A stretch of 63,555 nucleotides of DNA, the filler included. It is 6 parts of 6 records of this genome, joined end to end, with 100 filler letters (N's around TTAATTAATTAA, not from the genome) between each part and the next. Parts side by side here need not be neighbours in the genome. Positions count along the whole stretch, not along the records: positions 21,848 to 33,909 come from SRR31156797_27387; 5 more parts are not named here. One strand, given 5' to 3'. Both the position numbers and the translations under genes were made by a program. The notes below the pieces were generated by a model that searched no databases, was not told the DNA's origin, and worked only from the letters and a program-made list of their open reading frames with translations. Below, piece by piece: positions 8,383-58,307 of this stretch; the stretch's first letter is position 1; each line of letters starts with the position of its first letter.

Positions 8383-8482
8383 NNNNNNNNNNNNNNNNNN
8401 NNNNNNNNNNNNNNNNNNNNNNNNNNTTAATTAATTAANNNNNNNNNNNNNNNNNNNNNNNNNNNNNNNNNNNNNNNNNNNN
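8383..8482. other. Artificial contig spacer
   Basis: N-run, TTAATTAATTAA (stops in all frames), N-run; 100 nt. Confidence 0.99.
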
Positions 8483-10399: not shown

Positions 10400-12235
10400 A
10401 TGACCGCCACGTTAGCTGCTGAACAATCTGACTCATCTTTGACAGCGAAAGGCGTCCTGCGCGACGTTTTTGGTTATCAGTCATTTCGTGAAGGCCAGCA
10501 AGAGGTTATTGATACTGCAATTGAAGGCAATGATAGCTTAGTCATTATGCCTACAGGTGGTGGTAAATCGCTCTGTTACCAAATACCGGCACTGGTGCGT
10601 TCCGGCGTTACGGTAGTCATCTCTCCGCTTATCTCCTTGATGAAAGATCAGGTCGACCAACTCAAAGCGAACGGCGTAGCAGCTGAGTGTGTTAACTCAA
10701 CACAAACACGTGAAGAGCTCATCGGTATTTATAACCGAATGCATACTGGTCAGGTTAGGTTGATTTACGTTTCTCCTGAGCGAGTACTTACTAACGAGTT
10801 TGTCGAGCGTTTACATAATATCCAACTCTCAATGATTGCTGTGGATGAGGCGCACTGTATCTCTCAATGGGGACATGATTTTCGTCCAGAATATGCATTA
10901 CTTGGCCAGCTAAAGCAGCAGTTTCCTCATGTGCCAATTATGGCGCTGACTGCTACCGCCGATGATGCAACACGCCGTGATATTCAAAGTCGCTTACAGT
11001 TAACAGAGCCACATATCTATCTCGGTAGTTTTGACCGCCCGAACATTCGCTATACCTTAGTTGAGAAGCATAAGCCTGTTTCTCAAGTCATTCGTTATTT
11101 GGGAACTCAAAAAGGTCAGTGTGGCATTATCTATTGTGGCAGTCGTAAAAAAGTAGAAATGCTGACTGAGAAGCTGTGCAATAACCACATTCGAGCTGCA
11201 AGCTACCACGCCGGACTAGACGTTGATGAACGAGCTTATGTACAGGAAGCTTTTCAGCGTGATGATATTCAGATAGTCGTGGCAACGGTCGCTTTCGGCA
11301 TGGGAATCAACAAGCCAAACGTGCGCTTTGTTGTCCACTTTGATATCCCAAGAAATATCGAATCTTACTATCAGGAAACCGGGCGAGCTGGTCGAGATGG
11401 CTTACCTGCCGAAGCGATGATGCTTTATGACCCAGCCGATATTTCCTGGTTACGCCGAATGCTGGACGAGAAAGATGAAGGTCCACAGAAGCAGGTTGAA
11501 AGCCACAAACTCAACGCAATGACGCATTTCGCTGAAGCGCAAACCTGTCGTCGTCAGGTGCTGCTGAATTATTTTGGTGAGTATCGCGAAAAGCCTTGTG
11601 GCAACTGCGATATTTGCCTTGATCCACCCAAGCACTTTGATGCAACAGAAGAAGCACGCAAGGCGCTCTCTTGTGTATATCGAATTAACCAGAATTTTGG
11701 TATCGGTTATGCGGTAGAAGTACTGCGTGGTATGCAAAATGTGCGTGTGCGTGAAAATGGCCACGATAAAATTTCAACCTATGGTCTTGGCCGTGACCAC
11801 AGCCATGATTACTGGGTTAGTATCTTCCGCCAGTTGATTCATAAAGGGTTGCTGTTCCAGAACATTACCCGTAACTCGACCCTGCAGCTGACTGAAGAGG
11901 CGCGTCCGCTTTTGCGTGGTGATGTGAGTTTAGAGCTGGCCGTTCCGCGTTTGGATACGGCAGCAAGAGCGTCTAAATCCGATAAGTTATCCAGCAAAAA
12001 CTACGATAAGAAGCTATTTGCGAAATTGCGTAAGCTTCGTAAGTCGATTGCGGATGAAGATGGACTGCCGCCTTACGTGGTATTTAGTGATGCCACCTTG
12101 ATCGATATGGCGGAGATTTTGCCGACATCTTACGGTGAAATGTTGGCAGTGAACGGGGTTGGTCAGCGTAAGTTAGAAAAGTATGCAGACCCGTTCTTAG
12201 ATTTAATTCAGGAGCATTTAACTCATCATGGCTGA
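10400..12235 (+). CDS. recQ: ATP-dependent DNA helicase RecQ
   Basis: MPTGGGKS, DEAHCISQWGHDFRP, QETGRAGRDG, Zn-binding Cys residues, RQC and HRDC domains. Confidence 0.98.
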   Translation: MTATLAAEQSDSSLTAKGVLRDVFGYQSFREGQQEVIDTAIEGNDSLVIMPTGGGKSLCYQIPALVRSGVTVVISPLISLMKDQVDQLKANGVAAECVNSTQTREELIGIYNRMHTGQVRLIYVSPERVLTNEFVERLHNIQLSMIAVDEAHCISQWGHDFRPEYALLGQLKQQFPHVPIMALTATADDATRRDIQSRLQLTEPHIYLGSFDRPNIRYTLVEKHKPVSQVIRYLGTQKGQCGIIYCGSRKKVEMLTEKLCNNHIRAASYHAGLDVDERAYVQEAFQRDDIQIVVATVAFGMGINKPNVRFVVHFDIPRNIESYYQETGRAGRDGLPAEAMMLYDPADISWLRRMLDEKDEGPQKQVESHKLNAMTHFAEAQTCRRQVLLNYFGEYREKPCGNCDICLDPPKHFDATEEARKALSCVYRINQNFGIGYAVEVLRGMQNVRVRENGHDKISTYGLGRDHSHDYWVSIFRQLIHKGLLFQNITRNSTLQLTEEARPLLRGDVSLELAVPRLDTAARASKSDKLSSKNYDKKLFAKLRKLRKSIADEDGLPPYVVFSDATLIDMAEILPTSYGEMLAVNGVGQRKLEKYADPFLDLIQEHLTHHG

Positions 12236-12530
12236 GTTCGGTTTAAAGGAATATTTTGCACAAGAAGGCCGCTTGATTATTCAGACTCAAGAGTTTGATT
12301 TTGATAGCTTCCCAGAGTTAGGTGAGCGTTTACTTACTTTGCTTTCTGCTACAGCTGTCGAGAAGCAGCAAGACGCGGATCTACACTCATGGCTGATTGA
12401 TTTCGAAGGTTGTCGCTTGATGCTAAGAGCTGAACATTACAGCGAGTGTGTTTGGCTGGAAGCGATGGGTGAAGGGCTAGCACGAGAAGAGCTTGAGTTT
12501 ATTGCGAGTTTGCTCGCCCGCGGGATTTAA
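12228..12530 (+). CDS. Conserved small protein (DUF3630-like)
   Basis: Overlaps the recQ stop; DADLHSWLIDFEG and LRAEHYSECVWLE pattern. Confidence 0.75.
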   Translation: MAEFGLKEYFAQEGRLIIQTQEFDFDSFPELGERLLTLLSATAVEKQQDADLHSWLIDFEGCRLMLRAEHYSECVWLEAMGEGLAREELEFIASLLARGI

Positions 12531-21747: not shown

Positions 21748-21847
21748 NNNNNNNNNNNNNNNNNNNNNNNNNNNNNNNNNNNNNNNNNNNNTTAATTAAT
21801 TAANNNNNNNNNNNNNNNNNNNNNNNNNNNNNNNNNNNNNNNNNNNN
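21748..21847. other. Artificial contig spacer
   Basis: N-run with TTAATTAATTAA. Confidence 0.99.
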
Positions 21848-21976
21848 CGCCCCTACAATCTATAAGTAGCTTTTTCCTGGTTTTCAGACCAAATTAATAA
21901 AATCAAAAAGTCCCGCCAGTAAGACATAATTATTAGCAAGCACTATATTTCGGAGAGATCTGCAGGAAAGAACAAT

Positions 21977-22002
21977 GCCCCTGGTCCGCACGATCCAGGG
22001 GC
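21977..22002 (-). terminator. GC hairpin downstream of the signalling operon
   Basis: GCCCCTGG-10 nt-CCAGGGGC, followed on the minus strand by ATTGTTCTTT. Confidence 0.55.
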
Positions 22003-22031
22003 GTCGGTTAAATCAATTTAATTATTAAACC

Positions 22032-22952
22032 TCAGACCAGCAACCCAAAAGCGACCCGGGCGATGAATTCCTGAAAATCCTGTGGGCGGCGTGGTTTAAG
22101 CAGGCAGTCGTCCACCTTGTATTCGGGCGAAAGCACTTTTTCCATTCGTTCTTCGCTGGCTGTAAAAATAATAAAGTGATTCGGGCCGCAAGACGGATCG
22201 TTTTTCACCGCCTGGCAAAGCTGCAGGCCGTTTAAACCAGGCATTTCAAGATCTGAAACAATTATTTTCGGCTGAGATTCACGGGCGGCTTCCAAGCCCT
22301 TTTCACCGTCCGCGGCCGTCAGGACTTCAAAATTGTGTTCTTCCAGGTTTTTGCGAAATAATTCCAATTGGTATGCGGAATCGCTGACCAGCAGTATTTT
22401 TCTGTCCTGTTTTGAAAGCTTGACGGCCAATAGATGATTTATAAGACGATAGGACGTTTGCAAAGATCTGACCAGGTTGCTTTTTAAGGAAGATTTCGAA
22501 GCTTTTCCGCCTTGGCCTTCTTCGGCCAGCAACCGGTATTGTTCTAATTCGGCCGCCCTGTCCCGGGCTTCGGCCGCCCTGGTCAAAGACCTGGTCGCCT
22601 GGTTGAAAAGAGCTTCCCGGGATACGGGTTTTTCCAAAAGCGCGGCCGCGCCTTCATTCATGGCCATGACCAGGTGCGAAAGCGGCGCCTCGCTGTTTAC
22701 CAGAAAAATAAACGGCCTGTTAGGGTGTTTCTTATGAACGTTCTGCATGGTTTTGACGGACAAGGCGTCTTCCTGAAAAAAATCCATTATGACAAGTTCA
22801 GGCCCGGCGTCTAATATTATTTTGACCAATTCCTCCACGGAGGAATCGCTGCCGGGTTCGTGCCTTATCGGGGCGTGGCTTTCTTCCTTCAGAGCCTGGA
22901 AAATGCCGTCCGCATCCTTTCCCGGCTCCGCTATCAATAAAATATGAGACAT
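22032..22952 (-). CDS. Dual receiver-domain protein (REC-coiled coil-REC), no output domain
   Basis: Atypical N-terminal REC (LVIMDF, LLEKP); C-terminal REC (IIVSDLEMPGLNG, LLKP). Confidence 0.88.
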   Translation of the reverse strand: MSHILLIAEPGKDADGIFQALKEESHAPIRHEPGSDSSVEELVKIILDAGPELVIMDFFQEDALSVKTMQNVHKKHPNRPFIFLVNSEAPLSHLVMAMNEGAAALLEKPVSREALFNQATRSLTRAAEARDRAAELEQYRLLAEEGQGGKASKSSLKSNLVRSLQTSYRLINHLLAVKLSKQDRKILLVSDSAYQLELFRKNLEEHNFEVLTAADGEKGLEAARESQPKIIVSDLEMPGLNGLQLCQAVKNDPSCGPNHFIIFTASEERMEKVLSPEYKVDDCLLKPRRPQDFQEFIARVAFGLLV

Positions 22953-22955
22953 TGG

Positions 22956-25079
22956 CTACTCCATGAGCAGATTATCAAAATCAATCACTTCATAGTACTT
23001 GGTCAATTGATTTCGGGCAAAGCGGTCTACTTCCTCCTGGGTCTTGCTTGTGGCGAACATAACCTTGACCGTATCGGACACCATACCCTTTTCAATTTTT
23101 TCCAATGTCGGGGTTGTGGCAATAACGTCGCCCAACAAGGCCAGCCTTCTGAGAATCAGGTAAGCCACAAGGAACGGCTGTTGAAAGGTGGGATTAAAGC
23201 GGAGCCTGCTTTGAAATATATTCGCGCCCTGGTCGGTTTTAGCCTGCAGAAGAAGGCTGCTGAAAGAACTGAGCACAAAGGCGGCCTCTTCCTCGCCTTC
23301 AGCCTCATCTTCTTCCGCCTTGGCTCGCGGTTTGAATTTGTTAAGCGCCTCCATCAATTCATCATCTTTTAACTTGAAATGCCGCCCGGCCCTGATGTGG
23401 CTGATGGCTTCTTCCAGCAGTTTAACCGAATCAAGCAACAGGTCGATCAATTCCTGGTTGACTTCCAAATCCCTTTCTCTCATCCGGCCGAGCACGGTTT
23501 CAACATCGTGAACCATGGCGCCCAAGCCTTCAAATCCGGTCATTATCAGATTGCCTTTTATGGAGTGGAAATGACGGAATATGGTATTTATTCTTTCCGG
23601 ACTATCCGGATCTTTTTCCAGTTGGAATATTTCCTCGTTCAGTTCGGTAAGAATATTTTTTATTTCGAGAAAGAAGTCACCGGCCAGGGAAGCGTCCATG
23701 CCGGTAACCCGGACAATGTCTTTATCTTCGCTCTCGGCGGATTCGTCACCCAGGGCCTTGGTTTCAGCATCTTTTGCTACAGGTTCAACTCCGGTAAAAA
23801 GATCCTGATCAAATTCGATAGATTCCCGGCTTAAAAAACCTTCTTCAGCGGAATCCCGGCTCTCGCCGGTCGCCAGGTTGACCAATTCAAACGGATCAAG
23901 AACCAGACCAAGTTGGTTGCCGCCTAAAATAGTAGTACCGGAAACCCCGTTTACGTTGAACAGGTCCGGCAGGGGTATCAGAACCAGTTTCTGGGGTCGG
24001 ATGAATTCGGACACTTTTAAAGCTATTCGTCCGTTTTTCGCCTCGATAATAATTACCGGAATGGTTTCCTGATCTTCTTCCTGCGCTCCTCCGTACAGCA
24101 AGCCGTGCAGATCGTGCAACGGGATTATTGACCCCAGGTAAATTATGCTCCGGCTGCGTTCCATTGTGGTGTGAAGTTCTTCCACCTGGAAAGCCTGGGT
24201 GGCCACGACATTGACAATGGGCACGGCAAAATGCTCCCGGCCTGCTCTTATGATAAGCGCGTCGGTAATGTTCACAGCCGACAGTATAGGTATTTTGTAT
24301 AAAAAAGAAGCGCTCTTTCCCGGTTCGGATTCGATGATCACTTCACCGCCGAGTTCGTCCGTCATGGTTTTTACTACATCCATGCCCACGCCGCGGCCTG
24401 AAATTTCCGTTGCCTTGGGGGAAGTGGAAAAACCCGGCTGCATTATCAGGTTAAAACATTCTTCACTGGTCAGATTCGCGGCGGCCGAAGCAGAATAGAG
24501 CCCTTTTTCCCTGGCGACCTGCTTTACTTTTTCTTCGTCAACGCCCCGCCCATCGTCTTCCACCCGGATAAAAGTGTGGCCTTCCTTGGGATAAGCGCTC
24601 AGGGTAAGTTGCCCGACAGGGTTTTTCCCCTGGTGTTTTCTCTCAATGGAATCTTCAAGCCCGTGATCAAGGGCGTTGCGAATCTGGTGGGCCAGGGGTT
24701 CATAAAGTCTTTCCGCAACAGTTTTGTCCACCAGGGTGTCTTCCCCTACAATTTCAAAATTAACCTGCAGCCCCTTTTTCTTGGCCAGGTCTCGAACCAG
24801 GCGCCGGAATCTTAGAAAGGTTTCCTTGACCGGGATGAGCCTGATATCCATCACCAGATGATGAAGATCGGAAGAAATACGGTTGGCGGTCATGGCCGCA
24901 TTCTTGATCATCTCCATTGAATCCTTGTCAAGGCTGTGGGACATGCCTTGCAAGTGCCTTTGTAAAATGGAGATATTGCTGGCGGTAATAATTATTTCCC
25001 CGGTCAGGCCCAGGAGCCTGTCCAAATGGGATATTTTCACAGCCATGCGATCTATTTCCGGCGCATCTTTACCATTCAT
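22956..25079 (-). CDS. cheA: CheA-like histidine kinase with permuted domain order (dimerisation-HATPase-CheW-Hpt-P2)
   Basis: aa 10-80 dimerisation (VKISHLDRLLGLTGE); aa 125-265 HATPase (HQIRNALDHG, DDGRG, PGFST, SGRGVGMDVV); aa 272-403 CheW-like; aa 461-583 Hpt (IFRHFHSIKG); aa 618-700 P2-like. Confidence 0.92.
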   Translation of the reverse strand: MNGKDAPEIDRMAVKISHLDRLLGLTGEIIITASNISILQRHLQGMSHSLDKDSMEMIKNAAMTANRISSDLHHLVMDIRLIPVKETFLRFRRLVRDLAKKKGLQVNFEIVGEDTLVDKTVAERLYEPLAHQIRNALDHGLEDSIERKHQGKNPVGQLTLSAYPKEGHTFIRVEDDGRGVDEEKVKQVAREKGLYSASAAANLTSEECFNLIMQPGFSTSPKATEISGRGVGMDVVKTMTDELGGEVIIESEPGKSASFLYKIPILSAVNITDALIIRAGREHFAVPIVNVVATQAFQVEELHTTMERSRSIIYLGSIIPLHDLHGLLYGGAQEEDQETIPVIIIEAKNGRIALKVSEFIRPQKLVLIPLPDLFNVNGVSGTTILGGNQLGLVLDPFELVNLATGESRDSAEEGFLSRESIEFDQDLFTGVEPVAKDAETKALGDESAESEDKDIVRVTGMDASLAGDFFLEIKNILTELNEEIFQLEKDPDSPERINTIFRHFHSIKGNLIMTGFEGLGAMVHDVETVLGRMRERDLEVNQELIDLLLDSVKLLEEAISHIRAGRHFKLKDDELMEALNKFKPRAKAEEDEAEGEEEAAFVLSSFSSLLLQAKTDQGANIFQSRLRFNPTFQQPFLVAYLILRRLALLGDVIATTPTLEKIEKGMVSDTVKVMFATSKTQEEVDRFARNQLTKYYEVIDFDNLLME

Positions 25080-25476
25080 GGTCGAATATCCTGCTTAAAA
25101 CCGTGTGGAGCATTTCTTTGGTAAAAGGTTTTGTCAGGTAATCATCCGCTCCCAGCCTTAACGCTTTGAATATGTAGCGGGAATCGGCGTGAGTGGATAT
25201 GATGATTACCGGAAGCGTTCGCCATTTTTTGGAAGTTTTAATGGCTTCCGTGAGTTCGAATCCATCCATTTCAGGCATAACCAAGTCTGATATCACCAGA
25301 TCGACATGGTTTTCCTTAAGCTTTTTTTGCGCATCGACGCCGTTTTCGGCTTCCAGGCACACAAGGCCGACGCTTTGGGCAAGCTCGCGCATAATCCTTC
25401 TCAATGTGGGGTAATCATCCACAATGAGAGCGGTTTTGCCCTTCCAGGCCTGTTCTGAAGAAATTGCATTTTCCAT
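25069..25476 (-). CDS. Single-domain response regulator (CheY-like)
   Basis: LIVDD, VISDLVMPEMDG, IIIST, YLTKP all intact; overlaps the kinase start by 11 nt. Confidence 0.93.
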   Translation of the reverse strand: MENAISSEQAWKGKTALIVDDYPTLRRIMRELAQSVGLVCLEAENGVDAQKKLKENHVDLVISDLVMPEMDGFELTEAIKTSKKWRTLPVIIISTHADSRYIFKALRLGADDYLTKPFTKEMLHTVLSRIFDHEW

Positions 25477-25625
25477 TTTAGGTCACTTTTCCGAAATAGG
25501 ATATTTGCCCTGTTCCTCTCCATTAAAGAATTATCACGCTCTTAAGATCCATTCAAGCCCCCAGCCGCTTCGCATCCCTTTATTATTCTTGACAGAGTAA
25601 AGAAAATGCCCTACATATCCGTCAC

Positions 25626-26198
25626 ATGTCATTCGGGGAATACCAATGGTTTTACCGGCCGTTTAAAAAGGGCCGCCCCAGGCTGCTGAAACCGGGTGCG
25701 GCGATCGCGGCCATGGCCATTATTTTAATGACGCCGGCAATATCCATGATAAACGCGTCAATGGCCGATGCCGGGGAAAACCTTGTCTGTAAATTGTATT
25801 TTCCTCATCCGTCGCTTCCTTTTCTGACCGTTGAGGAGAGAGTCATTAAGCAAAAGGCTTATTTAACCGATCGTATTTTTAGTGTAATTTCCGCTTTAGC
25901 TTCGTTAAAACATGATAGTCGGACCAATCGTTTTCCGGACGGTTTAAGCCTGCGACGGGTGTTCATCGATCAGGTGGGAACAGTGTATGTTGATCTTTCC
26001 GCGGAAACAAGTAAAATTTCCTCTGGAGTCATCCGCGAGCGATTGGTAGTCTGGTCCCTGGTGAACACTGTTTGCCTCAATTTTTCTGAAGCGAAGCGAG
26101 TTAAAATTCTGGTTGGCGGTGATGAAGTTGACACTCTTTTCGGACACATAGACCTGTCACGACCCTTACTCCCGGATGAGAGTATTATTAAGAAGTAA
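25626..26198 (+). CDS. GerMN domain protein
   Basis: N-terminal TM; LYFP, VYVDLS, SLVNT, VKILVGG, TLFGHIDLSRP. Confidence 0.85.
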   Translation: MSFGEYQWFYRPFKKGRPRLLKPGAAIAAMAIILMTPAISMINASMADAGENLVCKLYFPHPSLPFLTVEERVIKQKAYLTDRIFSVISALASLKHDSRTNRFPDGLSLRRVFIDQVGTVYVDLSAETSKISSGVIRERLVVWSLVNTVCLNFSEAKRVKILVGGDEVDTLFGHIDLSRPLLPDESIIKK

Positions 26199-26222
26199 CC
26201 CTCGAGAAAAAGCGAATATGTC

Positions 26223-28268
26223 ATGGCTGCTGACAAAAGACTGAAAAGTATAAGAAATATTGGTATCATCGCCCATATCGACGCAGGGAAAACAACCCTG
26301 ACCGAGCGTATTCTTTATTACACCGGGCGAACCCACAAAATGGGCGAAGTCCACAACGGCGAAGCCACCATGGACTGGATGCCCGAAGAGCAGGAACGCG
26401 GCATCACCATTACTTCCGCTGTAACCAGTTCCGAGTGGAAAGGGGCGTCGATAAATATTATCGATACCCCCGGACATGTTGATTTTACAATAGAAGTGGA
26501 AAGAAGCCTTCGTGTTCTGGACGGCGCCATCGGCGTTTTTTGCGCGGTCGGCGGAGTCGAACCCCAATCCGAAACAGTCTGGCACCAGGCGGATCGATAT
26601 CACGTTCCCAAAATAGCATTCATTAACAAGATGGATCGCGTGGGCGCCGATTTTAACAATGTTCTGGGCATGATGAAGGAAAGGCTAGGGGCGCGCCCCC
26701 TGGTCATGCAGTTGCCCTGGGGCAGCGAAGACAAATTTAGAGGCGTGGTGGACCTGGTCCGGATGCGATGTTATGTCTGGGATGATGAAAGCCTGGGCGC
26801 CAATATGGTGGATGAGGACGTTCCCGAAGAAATGATGGAAGCCGCAACAGCCGCCCGCATAGAATTGATAGAAGCAGTGGCTGAAACCGACGACGAGTTA
26901 ATGGAAGCCTATTTAAATGATGAGGAAATACCCATTGACAGGCTGCTGGCCGCTGTCCGCAAAACCACTGTAGGCCTTAACCTGGTGCCGATCTTTTGCG
27001 GCGCCGCACTAAGGAACAGGGGCGTTCAGCCTCTTCTTGACGCCATTGTGGATTTTCTTCCTTCTCCGCTCGACGTGCCGCCCATATCCGGTGAAAAGCC
27101 GGAATCCGGCGAATCAGTTACTCTTCCCGTTGAAGTTAAAGCCCCGCTTTCCGCTCTCGCATTCAAGGTCATGATGGACCAGGGCCGCAAGCTGACTTAT
27201 CTTAGGTTGTATTCCGGAAAAATGGCCGCCGGATCGGATGTTCTAAACGTCAGAACAGGCCAGAAGGAAAAGATCTCCCGAATTCTACGCATGCATTCCA
27301 ATAAAAGAGAGCGGGTCAATGAAGCCCTGGCCGGCGACATTATCGGAATTATCGGTTTAAAATCGGCCGGAACCGGAGACACGATCACGGACATGGAAAA
27401 CCCGGTCATTCTGGAATCCATAGAAGTTTATGAACCGGTTATAAACGTGGCTGTTGAGCCAAAAGTGTCTTCGGACCTGGACAAGGTGACGGCTTCATTA
27501 TTGAAGCTTGCCGAAGAGGACCCAACATTCAGATACAGGGTGGACGACGACACCGGGCAGACCATTATCTCGGGCATGGGTGAGTTGCACCTGGATGTAC
27601 TCGTGCATCGCCTGGGCCGGGAATTCAATGTCGATCTGAATGTGGGTAAACCACAGGTTGTTTACAGGGAAACCGTAAACATGGAAAAGGAAGCCGAGGG
27701 CGTCTTTGACCGGGAGCTCGGGGGAACGCCTCACTTTGCTTCGGTTCTGCTTAAAATCAAGCCTTTGCCCAGAAAAGCAGGAAGAAAGATAATAAACAAT
27801 ATCGATCCTGAAAGCCTGCCTGAAAACTTTTTCCAGGCAATAACGGAAGCTGTGAAGGAAGGTCTTTCCAGCGGCGTGGTTATGGGCTATCCGGTTCTGG
27901 ATATTGAAGTGACGATTATCAGCGCCCAGCAAAAGGAAGGCGTGTCCACGGAACCGGACTTCCGGGTTGCGGCCAGCCAGGCCTTGCGAGAAGGATTATT
28001 AGGCGCCGCCCCCGTCCTCCTGGAACCTATGATGGCGGTTGAAGTGATCGTTCCGGATGAGTTTACCGGGGAAGTGATCGGCGACCTTAATTCCCGCCAG
28101 GGCAAAGTGGACAATATCGCGGCCCGTAAGGCTTTTAAAATTGTGTCAGCCACCGTGCCCTTGTCCGAAATGTTCGGTTATTCCACTTCGGTCAGATCGG
28201 CCACCCAGGGACGCGGAACCTTTTCCATGCAGTTCTCGCACTACGACTTCGTGGAAAGAAGAAAATAG
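26223..28268 (+). CDS. fusA: Elongation factor G (stand-alone copy)
   Basis: [42 protein letters not shown]; no rpsL/rpsG/tuf neighbours. Confidence 0.96.
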
Positions 28269-28362
28269 CTTAATATGAAATAAGTATTATACGGCGACAC
28301 AGTAAAGAATAGGGGGCAAAAGCAAACCCGACGCCTTACCTCTTACTGAAGGCAAATAAAAG

Positions 28363-28857
28363 CTATATCCAGTTTTCATCATACTTTTCCCAGAGTTTCG
28401 GCAGTTTCCGGGCATTTTCGTCCTCATCGTCAAAATCCCATTCCTCTCCCTCAGGATCCTCGGCAGCAAAAGGCTTCCGGGGCATGTCTTCACCGGTTGC
28501 ATTTTCGTATAAATCCAAGGCAATGTACCCGAAAAGCTCATCAGATATTTCTTCGCCAAGCTTTACTGAAGCCAGTGAATCCGGATCGGCAAGAGCGTTT
28601 TCATAGACCTCTTTTCCTTTGGATATCAAGCCGTATCTGAAATCAATAAATCCATCATCCGAACACCCGCCATGGATAATATAAGCCGCTCCCCAAAGGT
28701 TCCAGCGATAGGCTTTTTCGTGAAAATAGTCGAAATGTTCCTGATAGGACACGAGTTCCCGGGGAGACAATCGAACCAGTTCTTCTTTCACGACTGATTT
28801 GGGATCGTCATCATCTTTTCCTTTTGCTATGATTGCCCAAAAATCTTCAACCTTCAC
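28363..28857 (-). CDS. DUF4240-like protein
   Basis: GTG start after AAGGAGAG; FWAII, LWGAAYIIHGGCSDDGFIDFR, LPKLW. Confidence 0.85.
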   Translation of the reverse strand: MKVEDFWAIIAKGKDDDDPKSVVKEELVRLSPRELVSYQEHFDYFHEKAYRWNLWGAAYIIHGGCSDDGFIDFRYGLISKGKEVYENALADPDSLASVKLGEEISDELFGYIALDLYENATGEDMPRKPFAAEDPEGEEWDFDDEDENARKLPKLWEKYDENWI

Positions 28858-29048
28858 TTTGCTCTCCTTTCAGGAAAGGACCGGTTTGAATTATTAGTGA
28901 GAAAAGCGTTCTCGCCTTCTCCCTCCTGGTTCATCACCTGATATTCGAGGCCTGGATAAGTGATTACAGTTATTATACAGAGTCTTTTCGTCGCCTGAAG
29001 CCGATACACGAGTCAAGGTCAGACGCGGCCCCTCATGATACTTTTTAT

Positions 29049-29612
29049 TTAAGCTTTTTCAATTTTTTCTATCGTTCTTTGCCTGACCAGCCCCCGCAAT
29101 ATGCTGAGAAACGGATGGTAACTGGTTTGGTCTTGCCCGTAGGTCAGGTTAAGCTCGTACTCGATGTCTTCCCAGGTGGAAAGGTTCGCGTCATTATGCT
29201 GTATTAAGGCTTCCAGCTTGTCCAGCGCGTTGGCGAGTTTTGCCTCCGGAGTAATGCAGGCGTTGAATTCCCTTTGCAAGGAGATGATCTTTTCTTTAAG
29301 AACCGCCGGCAGACCCCGGACCGTCTTTTGCAGTGCATCAAACTCAATGTTATCGTCTTCTATCTCTTTCTTGAAAGCCGGAATGTCGCCGTTGATTTCA
29401 CCAAGATCATGAAAAAGGCAGAGTTCCAGAACTTTCCTGGTATCCACATCCGGAAACTCATCTTCAAAAAGAACAGCCATAACCGTCATTCGCCATGTAT
29501 GTTCGGCCACGCTTTCCCGCCGTCCGTCCGCGCACCACGAATGCCGAGTAACTGACTTCAAAGGCTCGATAAGGCTCAAAAAATCTAAAATGCTTTGGGC
29601 TTTTTCTTCCAT
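29049..29612 (-). CDS. HD-domain phosphohydrolase (YfbR/HDDC2-like)
   Basis: LKSVTRHSW, ESVAEHTWR, HDLGE, DKLE motifs. Confidence 0.9.
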   Translation of the reverse strand: MEEKAQSILDFLSLIEPLKSVTRHSWCADGRRESVAEHTWRMTVMAVLFEDEFPDVDTRKVLELCLFHDLGEINGDIPAFKKEIEDDNIEFDALQKTVRGLPAVLKEKIISLQREFNACITPEAKLANALDKLEALIQHNDANLSTWEDIEYELNLTYGQDQTSYHPFLSILRGLVRQRTIEKIEKA

Positions 29613-29978
29613 AAATATAGGTGGAATTTAATTTGCACGGCAAGGACCGCGTCTTTCGTATTTCAAGCTCTCCGACTCCATTTTTCGCATGCTTTACAAA
29701 TATTGAACTGAGTCGCAGGACTTGTGAACTACCCGCAAAAGGCGATTTCTTAACCACTTATAGGAATATGTACGGGCATAATAATCCATGGTTAGTCCTA
29801 TGGTCAAACAGAAACCATCCATTCAGCCATGACTGATCACTGCTTGATAGTAATGTCGAAGAGGGTAAGCGGAGGACGCCATCAAGGATCATCTAATGAA
29901 GCCGCTTATATTGAGATTGCAACTTCCTTCAGATTTTGTCTTAGCACTAATAAATAATACATTCAAGATATCAAATCT

Positions 29979-32900
29979 CTATGAAAGTTCAGCCAGTTCC
30001 TGCTCGGCCTTCCTCACCCACCCATCTGCGGAGCAATCCCTGTAGATTTCAATGGCTTTTCCAAGGTGCTCCACGGCCTTAGGCTGATTACCGTTGCGTT
30101 TATGCAACCTGGCATAAAGCAGATGATCATAACCCAAATAAAATTGAAAATTATGCCTTTTATCCGCTTCAATAATATCTATCAGCCATTCTTCCGCCTT
30201 ACTATCGGGTGGATCGAGATTCAATAAGATCTCACATATGTATCTGGCGCATTTTTGCTTCATTCGTTTTGATCGAATATTTCTGCAATATAGCAGCAAC
30301 TCTTCTATATCGACGCCTTGATCAGAGCTTAATACTTTTGCTCTTGCCAATCCCGCTTTATAAAGGCCGATTTCGGAAGAACGATATTTTGTGGGTTCAA
30401 GAATGGATATCATTGTTTTAAAATAGCTTTGAGCCTTCTTGAAGTCTCTTTTGCTGATATATAACTCGAAAATGTGTTCGCACGCCGTCATCCAGTTTGT
30501 GTAATGCCCGGTCTTTTGGGAAAAATCCAATGCCTTTAGTAAGTAAGATTCTGCTTTATCCAAGTCGCCTTTCACAAAGCTGGAAACGCCGCAACAAATA
30601 TTGGCCGGAGTCTGGTAATACATATCGCCCATTTCTTCCGCAGCCTGCAAATAGTTCAGGCTCTCATTAATGGATAGCTCGATCTTACCCTGCCAGGCAT
30701 GAAACCATGTAACTATATAACTCTTTAAAAATATTCTGGGACCGGGATTATTGGTTTTCGCACTTAACGCCCAGCCTTTATTCAGACATTCGATGGCTTT
30801 CTCTACTTCATTTTCATAGTAACAGCCAAGTGCTGTGAACCAGTATGCAGACCACATTGAAAAATAATCCCTGGTCTCCATCGAGATTTTCAGCGCCTGT
30901 TCCAGAAGCTGAACGCCCTTGTTAAAATCCTCATCGATCAAAATGTAATATGACCCAAGGGCGACATATATTGTAGGCAGCCTCTTTTTGTAGGTCATGC
31001 TCTGAGCCAATTCAACAATGGGCTCTATAACCTCCATTGCCTTAACATGGTGGTTCAAGCTCATGTAGTACCCGGCCAGCAGGGTTCTGGCATCAACAAG
31101 CTTCCTTTGATTAGCTTCTGACATTGATAACTTGTCAGCGCATATCACTCCTTTTTTTGCATATGATATTGCATCTTTGAATGCCGACTTCTTTCGGGCC
31201 GCCTTACCGGCCAGCCTCAGGTATTCTTCCGCCTTCTCAAAATTCTCTCCCTCCCAAAAGTGCTCCGCCAAAATCCCGTATTGTTCTGAAATATTCTTTG
31301 CATACATGGATTCTACAGCCAGGCCGATTTCATTGTGAAGTTTGATTCTCCGCTTTTTCAAAATAGATTCGTAAACAACTTCACGGGTGAGGGCATGTTT
31401 GAAAATATAAATGGATTGAGGGTAGATTCCTCTTTCATAAATAAGCTCCGAATCCTTCAAAACAGACAAGTAGCCTAATAATTCCCGGTCCGACAACTCT
31501 GTAATATGTTGTAGCAGCTCATAGGTAAACTCTCTCTCGATCACCGCCCCGGCCTGAAGAACAACTTTTGCTCCCTCCGGCATGGAATCAACCCTGGCCA
31601 TGATAACATCTTGGATTTTGGATGGAATTGATAGCTGCTCAATATCTTTAGCTAAAAAATACCGGCCATCCTTTCTTTCAATTATCTTGAGCTCTATAAG
31701 GGACTTAATAAACTCCTCTATGAAAAATGGAACCCCCTCTGTTTTCTCCAGGATCAACTCCTTAAGATCAATATCTATGTTATCCGAGCCTAAAATGGAT
31801 TTCGCCATGGCAAGGCTTTCCCGGTTGGAAAGCCGGTTCAGGTTCACCTGGCTGTGATACGATTTCCCTCCCCAGGCGTGTACAAATTCAGGCCGATAGG
31901 TGAATATTAGAAAGATTCTTGAGCCGGATATGCTGTTTAAAAAGTTTATGAAGTATTCTTCGGAAGTTCTGTCAGTCCAATGGAGGTCCTCGATTGCCGC
32001 AACAAGGGGTCTGATCTCTGAACCCTTCAGGCTGATTCGTATTACTGATTCTATAATACGGTTTTTTTTTGCTTCCGGAGTAATCGGGATATCATCTACA
32101 TCGCTGCCTTTGACCGTTAAAAGCTCAAGAATATAAGGAAGTGTAGAAGTTACATCCACGCCTATAGTCTCTAGACCGCTTATGACCTTTTCCTTTATTT
32201 CTTCATCATGATCAGTATCCAGAATATCGAAATTGGATTTCAGTATATCGATCACCGGATGATAAGCTATGTTTTTACTGAACGAAAGACACTTGCCTTC
32301 AAGAAAGGTCACGTCCTCATTGATAATTGCTTTTCTAAATTCATATAACAGCCTTGACTTGCCGACGCCGGCCTCGGCCATTATTGAAAAAGCCTGGCCT
32401 CGGCCGCCCTTGGCCTCTTCGTATCCATTCAACAACAGTTCGAGTTCCCGATCTCTTCCAATAAAAGTTGTCAGGCCCCTTTCCGCGCTGACGTCAAACC
32501 GGGTTTTCCTGGTGCTGGGAGCTATCACCCGAAAAATCTTAACCGGCGTTTTCATGCCTTTGATTTTATAATCACCGAGGGCTTCGAACCGAAAAAACCC
32601 CTCCGTGTTCCTAAAGGTTTCTTCCGTCACATAAGTGGCGCCCGGTTCAGCAATGTTTTCCACCCTGGATGCCAGGTTGACCGTATCCCCAATAGCCTTG
32701 AAATCCACTCGCAGATCGTTGCCTAAAGTTCCGACGACCACCGGACCGGTGTGAATCCCGATCCGCATTTTGAGAGTCTGCATGTATTCTTTTTCAAGCT
32801 TCAACTTGTCACTTAGTTTGGCCATTTCTCTGTGGATTGAATATGCGGAACGAAGAGCCCGTTGGGGGGCGTCTTCCAGGGCAATTGGGGCGCCAAACAG

Positions 32901-33359
32901 GGCCATGACCCCGTCTCCGGTCAATTCATTGACCGTGCCTTCATAATCATGGACCTTATGGATCAGGAGTTCATAGACTTGGTCCATGATGGAATAGGCA
33001 TCTTCCGGGCCAAGGTATTCGACCATTGGAGTAAAATCCGCCATGTCGCAAAACATGACCGTGACCTGTTTGCGCTCGCCTTCGATTCGGTCTCTCTGCG
33101 CCAGGATTTTTTCGGTCAGCCCTTTGGGAAGGTATTTTTGAATTTTGGCCAGCTTATCGTCATAAGAAATGTCTTTGGGAGAAGGTTCGGGCAAGGCAGC
33201 TAATTTTTGGCCGCATTCACCGCAGAATTTCCGGTCCGGCGGTATCCCGGCCTGGCAATTCGGACAGATCTGCTCGAGCTTTGAGCCGCACTCTTCGCAG
33301 AACTTAATTCCTTCTCGATTCTCAAAATTGCATTTCGGGCATTGCATGACAGCCCCCAT
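29979..33359 (-). CDS. Double zinc ribbon-class III nucleotide cyclase-AAA/STAND ATPase-TPR protein
   Basis: Four CxxC motifs; MFCD, TGDGVMALFGAP, RIGIHTG, GDTVNLASR; EAGVGKS, IEDLHW, GVPFFIEE, FKHALT; helical repeats. The true start may be 33347. Confidence 0.93.
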   Translation of the reverse strand: MGAVMQCPKCNFENREGIKFCEECGSKLEQICPNCQAGIPPDRKFCGECGQKLAALPEPSPKDISYDDKLAKIQKYLPKGLTEKILAQRDRIEGERKQVTVMFCDMADFTPMVEYLGPEDAYSIMDQVYELLIHKVHDYEGTVNELTGDGVMALFGAPIALEDAPQRALRSAYSIHREMAKLSDKLKLEKEYMQTLKMRIGIHTGPVVVGTLGNDLRVDFKAIGDTVNLASRVENIAEPGATYVTEETFRNTEGFFRFEALGDYKIKGMKTPVKIFRVIAPSTRKTRFDVSAERGLTTFIGRDRELELLLNGYEEAKGGRGQAFSIMAEAGVGKSRLLYEFRKAIINEDVTFLEGKCLSFSKNIAYHPVIDILKSNFDILDTDHDEEIKEKVISGLETIGVDVTSTLPYILELLTVKGSDVDDIPITPEAKKNRIIESVIRISLKGSEIRPLVAAIEDLHWTDRTSEEYFINFLNSISGSRIFLIFTYRPEFVHAWGGKSYHSQVNLNRLSNRESLAMAKSILGSDNIDIDLKELILEKTEGVPFFIEEFIKSLIELKIIERKDGRYFLAKDIEQLSIPSKIQDVIMARVDSMPEGAKVVLQAGAVIEREFTYELLQHITELSDRELLGYLSVLKDSELIYERGIYPQSIYIFKHALTREVVYESILKKRRIKLHNEIGLAVESMYAKNISEQYGILAEHFWEGENFEKAEEYLRLAGKAARKKSAFKDAISYAKKGVICADKLSMSEANQRKLVDARTLLAGYYMSLNHHVKAMEVIEPIVELAQSMTYKKRLPTIYVALGSYYILIDEDFNKGVQLLEQALKISMETRDYFSMWSAYWFTALGCYYENEVEKAIECLNKGWALSAKTNNPGPRIFLKSYIVTWFHAWQGKIELSINESLNYLQAAEEMGDMYYQTPANICCGVSSFVKGDLDKAESYLLKALDFSQKTGHYTNWMTACEHIFELYISKRDFKKAQSYFKTMISILEPTKYRSSEIGLYKAGLARAKVLSSDQGVDIEELLLYCRNIRSKRMKQKCARYICEILLNLDPPDSKAEEWLIDIIEADKRHNFQFYLGYDHLLYARLHKRNGNQPKAVEHLGKAIEIYRDCSADGWVRKAEQELAELS

Positions 33360-33611
33360 GCATATGGTTAACCATTAAATTATATAGCAATAAAATGGAC
33401 ATAACAATAAAGGCGGCCGGCCGGAATTTCAACCCGATTGAATATAACAGGAATAGGAAACAGGGGCCGCCGTTTTAAGGACGGCGCGTTTTTACCAATA
33501 AATACGAAGAAAAGGCATCTAAATCGCAAGTGCAGTTTATCTTAATAAAAAGCCGGCTCCAAATAACCTGTGGCCCAAAATCTTAATTTAGAGCCGGCCT
33601 GCAGACTACTT

Positions 33612-33909
33612 TTATTCCCGGGCCATCATCTCTCTTAATGTCACTTTTTCCAGTTTCCCGGTGGCTGTTTTGGGCAAGTCGTCAAAAAAGGAGACCTTTT
33701 TCGGCGCCTTGTATACAGCGGCGTTGTCCCGGCAGAACTTGATGATCTCTTCTTCGGTCGCCTCCGCCCCGGGTTTCAATGTGATGCAGGCCACCGCTTT
33801 TTCGCCGCTTATCACGTCAGGGACGCCGACAACCTGAACTTCGCCTACAGCTGGATGGGTGTAGAGCAGGTCCTCAACTTCCTTGGGATAGATATTGAAG
33901 CCGCCGGTG
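33612..33909 (-). CDS. AMP-binding acyl-CoA ligase, C-terminal fragment
   Basis: GGFNIYPKEVEDLLYTHPAV...VVGVPD...YKAPK...LPKTATGK. Confidence 0.9.
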
Positions 33910-34009
33910 NNNNNNNNNNNNNNNNNNNNNNNNNNNNNNNNNNNNNNNNNNNNTTAATTAATTAANNNNNNNNNNNNNNNNNNNNNNNNNNNNNNNNNNN
34001 NNNNNNNNN
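33910..34009. other. Artificial contig spacer
   Basis: N-run with TTAATTAATTAA. Confidence 0.99.
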
Positions 34010-42305: not shown

Positions 42306-42405
42306 NNNNNNNNNNNNNNNNNNNNNNNNNNNNNNNNNNNNNNNNNNNNTTAATTAATTAANNNNNNNNNNNNNNNNNNNNNNNNNNNNNNNNNNNNNNN
42401 NNNNN
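42306..42405. other. Artificial contig spacer
   Basis: N-run with TTAATTAATTAA. Confidence 0.99.
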
Positions 42406-58207: not shown

Positions 58208-58307
58208 NNNNNNNNNNNNNNNNNNNNNNNNNNNNNNNNNNNNNNNNNNNNTTAATTAATTAANNNNNNNNNNNNNNNNNNNNNNNNNNNNNNNNNNNNN
58301 NNNNNNN
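58208..58307. other. Artificial contig spacer
   Basis: N-run with TTAATTAATTAA. Confidence 0.99.

Follow-up and report, generated by a model that had tools for sequence, protein, structure and literature searches.

A domain-level circular permutation of CheA in a compact, receiver-only operon

A three-gene operon at positions 22032-25476 of a 63,555-nucleotide stretch of joined contigs (the window, by which we mean the whole of the DNA analysed) encodes a CheA-type histidine kinase whose five domains stand in a rotated order. Canonical CheA is arranged P1-P2-P3-P4-P5, with the histidine phosphotransfer (Hpt) domain first. Here, the 707-residue protein begins with the P3-P4-P5 core, and both P1 and P2 come after P5, at the far end of an acidic linker. 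The evidence supports a domain-level circular permutation of CheA, located in a compact operon whose other two genes encode receiver proteins, and forming a distinct lineage. The reading that we favour, to which we assign a probability of about three in four, is that the product of this locus is a functional histidine kinase of class II, the CheA type, with P1 and P2 tethered behind P5 and with input reaching it from a chemosensory array via P5. The genes of the operon and the domains of the kinase are as follows (positions along the window; residues along the kinase).

25069-25476, minus strand: CheY-like gene, 135 residues, first in the operon
22956-25079, minus strand: permuted CheA kinase gene, 707 residues, order P3-P4-P5-linker-P1-P2
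22032-22952, minus strand: pseudo-receiver/receiver gene (REC-REC gene), 306 residues, last in the operon
24840-25040, minus strand: P3 dimerisation domain, residues 14-80 (Pfam H-kinase_dim 14-79, 24.0 bits, cut-off 23)
24285-24827, minus strand: P4 ATP-binding kinase domain, residues 85-265 (Pfam HATPase_c 125-264, 55.1 bits)
23868-24269, minus strand: P5 CheW-like domain, residues 271-404 (Pfam CheW 274-401, 53.6 bits)
23697-23867, minus strand: P5-to-P1 linker, residues 405-461, acidic and disordered (predicted local distance difference test, pLDDT, ~30, below 50, at 407-461)
23334-23693, minus strand: P1 (Hpt) domain, residues 463-582 (Pfam Hpt 466-558, 42.4 bits)
22959-23282, minus strand: P2 docking domain, residues 600-707 (Pfam P2 624-689, 31.3 bits, cut-off 23)

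Domain order, fold and conserved residues of the kinase

The domain order was first read by an initial annotation from the letters of the sequence, with a Pfam scan named as its check. In that scan, all five domains exceed their curated cut-offs and follow one another as H-kinase_dim, then HATPase_c, then CheW, Hpt and P2. The claim that the kinase opens with the dimerisation domain, followed by the ATP-binding and CheW-like domains, is borne out by the Pfam order, by profile alignment to sequences in the PDB, by an AlphaFold2 model and by Foldseek. A profile built from 13 homologues matches E. coli CheA (6s1k_A, E 3.4e-89) over residues 255-646 with its positions 13-415, and the CheA P1 chains 2ld6, 1tqg and 1i5n over residues 8-110 with its positions 477-582. 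The protein has the features expected of a CheA, namely P3, P4 with its ATP-binding motifs, P5 directly after P4, and a separate Hpt domain with a phospho-accepting histidine.

The AlphaFold2 model, built on 26 sequences and with a mean pLDDT of 75.3, shows P3 as a two-helix hairpin (helices 16-45 and 52-80), followed by folded P4 and P5 domains. P1 is a bundle of five helices (463-581) whose second helix carries H505, and P2 is an alpha/beta fold at 605-706 that has a pLDDT of 82-92 and reaches the last residue. In Foldseek, the core matches the CheA structures 3ja6, 1b3q and 2ch4; P3 matches 4xiv (P3P4, E 1e-20), P4 superposes on solved CheA P4 domains with template modelling (TM) scores of 0.9-0.97, and P5 matches 2ch4_A (P4-P5, E 2e-28). 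With the full 707-residue model as the query, no P1 or P2 match is among the matches listed, which comprise P3-P5 and generic histidine-kinase structures, and the structural identity of P2 consequently rests on the Pfam match and on the secondary structure in the AlphaFold2 model. The P2-like character that had been ascribed to the last domain is nonetheless plain in Pfam, given its score of 31.3 bits against a cut-off of 23.

The linker that joins P5 to P1 is where the permutation has made a new junction. It is acidic, as first described (17 Asp and Glu against 6 Lys and Arg over the 56 residues 406-461), and disordered. The alignment of 13 kinase homologues is colinear, and the linker is the only region in it that varies in length and sequence.

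The residues on which catalysis depends in CheA are kept across 26 sequences with identities down to 30%. The P4 motifs are HQIRNALDHG (131-140), DDGRG (175-179), PGFST (215-219) and GRGVGMDVV (228-236), within which H131, R134, N135, H139, G140, D176, G177, G179, G216, S218, T219 and G228-G232 are invariant. In P1, the invariant residues are H505 (codon 23565-23567), K508, H524 and E527; their spacing of +3, +19 and +22 equals what we take to be that of His48, Lys51, His67 and Glu70 in E. coli CheA. Together with the Hpt score and the matches to solved P1 chains, this upholds the earlier description of an intact phosphotransfer domain on the C-terminal side, centred on H505. Eleven positions of P5 are also invariant in the 26 sequences (A268, V269, N270, I271, D273, V291, P362, K364, V366, G381 and G387), and P5 must therefore be under constraint too. 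In P2, F632, Q633, L637, Y640, L641 and R645 are invariant in the close family. We take the protein to be a genuine and conserved CheA variant, probably an active one.

Family, phylogeny and operon conservation

The kinase is one member of a family that shares its domain order. A homology search covered 5.8 billion clustered proteins, and 115 of the 120 best matches, which were the ones taken, are colinear with at least 96% of the kinase at 53-68% identity. The labels carried by this close family are Thermodesulfobacteriota / Deltaproteobacteria / Candidatus Adiutrix and Planctomycetota. For more distant relatives, phmmer was run exhaustively over 1.84 billion representatives (50%-identity clusters) and yielded 14 further full-length colinear cluster representatives at 32-44% identity, and the rotated Pfam order is present in all 14; the named ones belong to metagenome-assembled genomes (MAGs) of Nitrospinota, Planctomycetaceae and Myxococcales. 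Independent homologues with the rotated order, on which the initial annotation had staked its proposal, are found both in the close family and among these distant representatives. H-kinase_dim scores 24-34 bits in most distant relatives.

When a profile of the family's own P1 was used to locate P1 in 276 fetched proteins, it lay after the core in 147, before the core in 126 and nowhere in three. In none of the 276 is the core flanked by a P1 at each end, which is the form that a duplication intermediate would take. A maximum-likelihood tree of the P3-P5 core (64 rows, quick search, unrooted, with Shimodaira-Hasegawa-like approximate likelihood ratio test (SH-aLRT) support only; P0125 was omitted, its core match being split) separates 19 permuted and two core-only rows from 43 canonical-order rows by a single branch with an SH-aLRT value of 100. 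All 43 canonical rows have P1 at the N-terminus only, according to the same P1 profile. The tree fits a rotation that arose once but does not prove it. The proposal that the permuted kinase represents a lineage of its own is well founded, in view of the independent assemblies, more than 100 colinear homologues, the conserved gene order and the one well-supported branch.

The family is rare among species-representative genomes, yet it is spread across several phyla. At E <= 1e-100, it is present in four of 401 sampled genomes of the phylum to which one host genome (G004) belongs and in one of 401 from the phylum of another (G001), that one being G001 itself; both figures are lower bounds, since no more than two candidates per genome were scored.

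Some relatives depart from the common form. P0150 (422 residues) and P0161 (484 residues) consist of P3-P4-P5 only, with cores that nest within the permuted clade; contig ends may have reduced them to gene fragments, or they may represent a split type that bears on the origin of the permutation. P0100 (809 residues) and P0105 (810 residues), both of the close family, are about 100 residues longer than the kinase; their best local alignment (68-69% identity) reaches over just 45% of the query, pointing to a large insertion that may lie in the linker. The giant, repetitive relative P0130 (4858 residues) has 32 matching stretches, the best of which pairs query residues 73-264 with its residues 4660-4851. 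At two loci on related Planctomycetota MAG contigs, the kinase is found in two frames, broken at different places (L006, 7073-9195; L007, 1922-4056). The contigs are of low coverage by name (7.9 and 5.3, respectively), and on that basis the frame change is probably a sequencing error rather than a genuine frameshift.

The operon had been described as three tightly coupled genes, and the coupling is indeed close: the CheY-like and kinase genes overlap by 11 nt, and 3 nt separate the kinase gene from the REC-REC gene, all on the minus strand. The order CheY-like, kinase, REC-REC recurs in all 11 close-family loci (L001-L008 and L087-L089); two of these run into a contig end, which truncates the CheY-like gene in L005 and the REC-REC gene in L089. 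In L001 and L004, the module is flanked by housekeeping genes with no relation to it. Two distant loci, L090 and L091 (36-39% identity), came from a metagenome scan with the distant permuted alignment, in which the back-translated patterns were generic and two of the 80 loci kept were permuted. Both have a receiver gene directly 5' of the kinase, which brings to 13 of 13 the loci in which the kinase has a CheY-like gene directly upstream. In L091, the sole distant locus with downstream DNA visible (L090 stops inside the kinase gene), there is no REC-REC gene; convergent YbjQ, anti-sigma and extracytoplasmic function (ECF)-sigma genes lie downstream of the kinase instead. The three-gene arrangement hence holds throughout the close family and fails in L091; the conserved core accordingly consists of the CheY-like gene and the permuted kinase gene, with the REC-REC gene as a trait of the close family.

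Signal flow and competing explanations

Both receiver proteins are conserved, to different degrees. The CheY-like protein scores 108.3 bits against Pfam Response_reg; its best NCBIfam match is CheY, at 95.3 bits and below the cut-off of 189. The acidic pair D20/D21, the phospho-acceptor D64, T95 and K116 are invariant in eight orthologues. The 306-residue protein matches Response_reg in two stretches (83.4 bits, the best at 186-296), with a helical linker between its receivers. It had been described simply as a REC-REC protein. Its C-terminal receiver is intact, with D190, D234, T264 and K286 kept in 11 orthologues; the N-terminal one is degenerate, a pseudo-receiver that keeps only D57, while the positions of the acidic pair, Thr and Lys drift in the same orthologues. 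It may resemble dual-receiver output proteins of the FrzZ type, which call for a complete phospho-acceptor pocket in each receiver; here only the C-terminal receiver has one.

The C-terminal tails of both proteins are conserved as well. The CheY-like protein ends in FDHEW (25069-25083, minus strand), for which the orthologues have F(D/N)(H/Y)(D/E)W, and the REC-REC proteins end in G-L-(L/I)-(L/V/I) (22032-22046, minus strand, and orthologues in L001-L008 and L087-L089). The tails may act as short docking motifs at the C-terminus.

The fit between the kinase and its CheY-like neighbour was modelled by folding P2 (residues 598-707) with the CheY-like protein, with no custom alignments and with three controls. 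The docking score is 0.70, against 0.00 for the best control; among complexes with solved structures, 51 of 78 come up to this mark, as do two of 108 mismatched pairs. The runs share at least 90% of their contacts, and the partner has a pLDDT of at least 87. The modelled interface pairs P2 residues 632-645, 663-665 and 686-696 with residues 97-135 of the receiver, that is, with its alpha4-beta5-alpha5 face, and includes invariant residues on both proteins.

Signal flow in the permuted kinase might then proceed as follows. The P3-P4-P5 core, which comes first in the chain, would dimerise through P3, with P1 and P2 suspended from P5's C-terminus by an acidic, disordered tether of ~55 residues. 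ATP would be bound by P4, and His505 on helix 2 of the tethered P1 would be phosphorylated. P2 would dock onto the alpha4-beta5-alpha5 face of the co-encoded CheY-like protein, which would receive the phosphoryl group from P1 on its Asp64. Asp234, in the intact C-terminal receiver of the 306-residue protein, would be a second acceptor, serving either as a second output or as a phosphate sink. As input, P5 would dock with CheW and receptors encoded elsewhere. In canonical CheA too, P1 and P2 are 'beads on a string'; because of this modularity, a rotation would shift the point of tethering and leave the chemistry unchanged, and is mechanistically plausible.

Several observations weigh against the reading of a working, array-coupled CheA. 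The H-kinase_dim score is barely over its cut-off (24.0 versus 23). The NCBIfam CheA equivalogs score far below their cut-offs, each in two stretches (NF041336, 340.6 versus 950; NF007835, 269.6 versus 793), a shortfall that explains why databases list family members under 'CheW', 'Hpt domain-containing protein' or 'ATP-binding protein'. The tree came from a quick search, is unrooted and has SH-aLRT values as its only support. CheA-P2 and CheY are a textbook pair with solved complexes; the passing docking score may reflect likeness to these, and no preference for one receiver can be read from the model. No chemotaxis gene is found among the 40 other open reading frames (ORFs) scanned in the window. 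Most directly, no gene for a methyl-accepting chemotaxis protein (MCP), CheW, CheB or CheR lies in or adjoining the module in nine of the 11 close-family loci, which makes the proposed input from P5 to an array a guess.

This last observation gives the strongest alternative its force. The kinase might act outside arrays as part of a self-contained cytoplasmic phosphorelay, with P5 retained for another contact or for stability, and with activity that is either constitutive or under feedback control by the pseudo-REC/REC protein. Such a receptor-independent relay would account for the nine loci that lack all four genes and have housekeeping flanks, for the bare CheY-like and kinase pair of L091, for the lack of adaptation genes and for the position of the family on its own deep branch. 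Against this, P5 is conserved as much as P4, with its 11 invariant positions over 26 sequences. All four host genomes examined (G001-G004) have stand-alone CheW proteins and many MCPs, with 7-16 CheW-domain matches, further CheA genes among them, and 7-38 MCP matches. A C-terminal appendage need not block docking to an array, as is suggested by the CheY-like domains carried by ~34% of CheAs, according to a 2023 survey (PMC10782961). Moreover, in L006 and L007, a soluble MCP gene directly follows the REC-REC gene (10508-12304, plus strand, in L006; 5412-5621, plus strand, cut by the contig end, in L007). On balance, a receptor-independent relay is the less likely reading but a rival to be taken seriously, and input through P5 to CheW and receptors encoded elsewhere, itself a guess, is favoured over it.

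The MCP of L006 and L007 has, towards its N-terminus, 4Fe-4S domains and domains like the large subunit of Fe-only hydrogenases (Fe_hyd_lg_C, 103.5 bits), together with an MCPsignal domain (98.6 bits); L087 and L088 have no such gene at the corresponding place. It may serve the permuted kinase of this Planctomycetota lineage as a receptor that senses redox state or H2. A bolder proposal goes beyond the individual locus: the permuted kinase together with its dedicated CheY-like partner might constitute an unclassified chemosensory class of ancient single origin, with no methylation-based adaptation, with unusual soluble receptors (the MCP of L006 and L007 being an example) or none, and with a rotation that is adaptive. 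We consider this conceivable, if rather doubtful. If it is true, the placement of P1 and P2 beyond P5 would alter the reach of the substrate to P4, and hence gating, and would be no neutral shuffle.

Other explanations concern the gene rather than its input. The kinase is one 707-residue frame free of stops here, and it is uninterrupted both in the aligned homologues and in a contig of run X2, which belongs to a study other than that of run X1; the claim of a continuous frame stands. Contigs of a run that is possibly the source match positions 22032-25476 without a difference. The 9,700-bp contig of X2 covers 21967-26200 with 74 substitutions and zero gaps, bridges the P5-to-P1 junction and encodes a product (P0001) that is 98% identical to the kinase; it departs from the window at 21967, just past the hairpin described below. 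A further run, X3, gave short, low-depth pieces only, at 90-99% likeness, and was left out.

A bipartite CheA, in which Met461 serves as an internal start or proteolysis of the linker frees P1-P2, would turn the permutation into a fusion at the level of the transcript. The ATG at 23697-23699 lies just ahead of P1, and the 2023 survey (PMC10782961) reports both that P1 retains its function when liberated and that there are bipartite CheA systems. The same codon had been put forward as the start of an ancestral CheA, an idea that fares poorly: a Met is present at this position in only four of 13 close homologues, and the 30 nt upstream hold no clear Shine-Dalgarno sequence. These two observations speak equally against an internal start; the unbroken frame, here and in all aligned homologues, and the retention of the linker in every member further make a bipartite kinase very unlikely.

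Still less probable is that the gene is a degenerate pseudo-kinase left over from a che locus that underwent rearrangement, and plays no part in signalling. The unusual domain order, the orphan location, the scores under the NCBIfam CheA cut-offs and the two Planctomycetota copies that match in two frames (L006 and L007) could be taken that way. Set against them are the invariance of the ATP-binding and phosphotransfer residues over 26 sequences, the confident folding of all five domains by AlphaFold2, the conservation of the operon partners across phyla, and the low coverage of the MAG contigs that carry the split-frame copies.

The chance that the assembly made a chimera of two cheA genes, with the 3' portion of the first attached to the 5' portion of the second, is negligible: the window consists of joined contigs of mixed G+C, and hence has the look of a metagenome assembly, but the X2 contig crosses the junction gap-free and 115 of the 120 best matches are colinear and come from many sources, including a complete 4.48-Mb chromosome (L001). 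Misassembly at the linker, which the initial annotation had named beforehand as a danger, is accordingly ruled out by the bridging contig from another study, the colinear homologues and that chromosome.

Genomic setting, relation to known systems and significance

The window is made up of six contigs with G+C contents, in order, of 0.57, 0.445, 0.474, 0.61, 0.57 and 0.39, joined by five artificial spacers of the form N44-TTAATTAATTAA-N44. Two genes with a spacer between them are not neighbours in the genome, and different organisms may be their sources. The contig that carries the operon extends from 21848 to 33909; it is closed by the spacer at 21748-21847, some 180 nt from the end of the operon, and the DNA to the left of 21748 is no genomic neighbour of the operon. 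The features around the operon are as follows.

8383-8482; 21748-21847; 33910-34009; 42306-42405; 58208-58307: artificial spacers
21977-22002, minus strand: GC-rich hairpin in the minimum free energy (MFE) structure, 29 nt past the REC-REC stop codon
25626-26198, plus strand: Germane-domain gene, divergent from the operon

The operon had been described as bordered by a divergent gene and a hairpin, and as free of receptor, adaptor and adaptation genes. The Germane-domain gene is the divergent neighbour. The hairpin is present and GC-rich, and is probably a terminator; its fold is of modest significance (MFE -23.8 kcal/mol over 85 nt, z -1.77, with 12 of 200 shuffles folding equally well), and a consensus terminator scan of the window, in which terminator-like sites occur at chance level, does not list it. 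A sigma-70 scan returned 10 promoter-like sites versus 4.7 expected, none of them compelling upstream of the CheY-like gene. A Pfam scan found no MCP, CheW, CheB or CheR in the operon or on its 12-kb contig, in agreement with the earlier description. The other neighbours on this contig include an EF-G gene (TIGR00484, 907 bits), a DUF4240 gene and an HD-domain gene.

Two further observations were made in the window. The operon contig encodes a 1126-residue protein (29979-33359, minus strand) that combines a double zinc ribbon and TPR repeats with adenylate/guanylate cyclase and AAA_16 domains. The contig at 34010-42305 (G+C 0.61) has six long ORFs of 281-688 residues, and Pfam gave no match at E <= 1e-8 for any of them.

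In comparison with the canonical CheA of E. coli and Thermotoga maritima, the permuted kinase has the same five domains. Its core aligns with residues 255-646 of E. coli CheA and with T. maritima CheA-289, its P1 aligns with solved P1 domains, the His/Lys/His/Glu set of P1 and the motif residues of P4 are conserved, and the P2 docking model uses the alpha4-beta5-alpha5 face of the receiver. The difference lies in the order: P1 and P2 precede P3 in canonical CheA, whereas here they come after P5, connected through the acidic disordered linker of ~55 residues. The cores have also diverged, with only 30-39% identity between the permuted kinase and its nearest canonical proteins, and the permuted cores occupy a branch of their own apart from the 43 nearest canonical representatives. 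A complete chemosensory pathway has an MCP, CheW and CheB/CheR alongside the kinase, and the operon of the permuted CheA has none of these.

Two kinds of known variant come closer, both of them described in the 2023 survey (PMC10782961). In split CheAs, such as the bipartite CheA3/CheA4 of Cereibacter (Rhodobacter) sphaeroides, the Hpt domain is encoded separately. What they share with the permuted kinase is that P1 is not bound to the N-terminus of the core, and they indicate that P3-P4-P5 can phosphorylate the P1 of another polypeptide. They differ in that here P1-P2 and the core are in one chain, with no second cheA-like gene and no degenerate kinase domain. The second kind comprises the CheA homologues, ~34% of the total, that bear a CheY-like domain, mostly at the C-terminus. 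These likewise have a further signalling domain on the C-terminus of P5, which is hence a tolerated attachment point; they keep an N-terminal P1 and add a receiver, whereas in the permuted kinase P1 and P2 are appended and nothing stands ahead of P3.

The portions of this survey that were consulted make no mention of a permuted or rearranged domain order, and no '...CheW,Hpt' architecture appears among the first ACF and F1-F4 entries of its Table S2, all of which are RefSeq (GCF) genomes. The permuted family, for its part, is known almost only from MAGs. A study of CheW domains (bioRxiv 10.1101/2022.05.07.491035), in the part consulted, mentions rare CheW-Hpt fusions and does not describe a rotated order. 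We found no published description of a permuted CheA in the full texts searched, subscription journals and database architecture listings lying outside that scope. The published catalogue of CheA architectures, in the parts consulted, is sorted by domain composition and does not single out order. Under current annotation names, permuted CheAs are easily missed when pathways are counted. The combination of rarity with a spread over several phyla raises questions about the age of the family and the manner of its dispersal.

The variant is marked by its rotated domain order and its dedicated CheY-like partner. It should share the chemistry of CheA and is not categorically new. CheA is among the best-studied signalling kinases, and models of its regulation hinge on the tethered P1 and P2 reaching P4 within the array. 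Those models are not overturned by the permuted CheA alone. The family is nevertheless notable and experimentally useful, since it has the same five domains placed by nature at the opposite end of the core and offers a ready test of how much the geometry of the tether matters.

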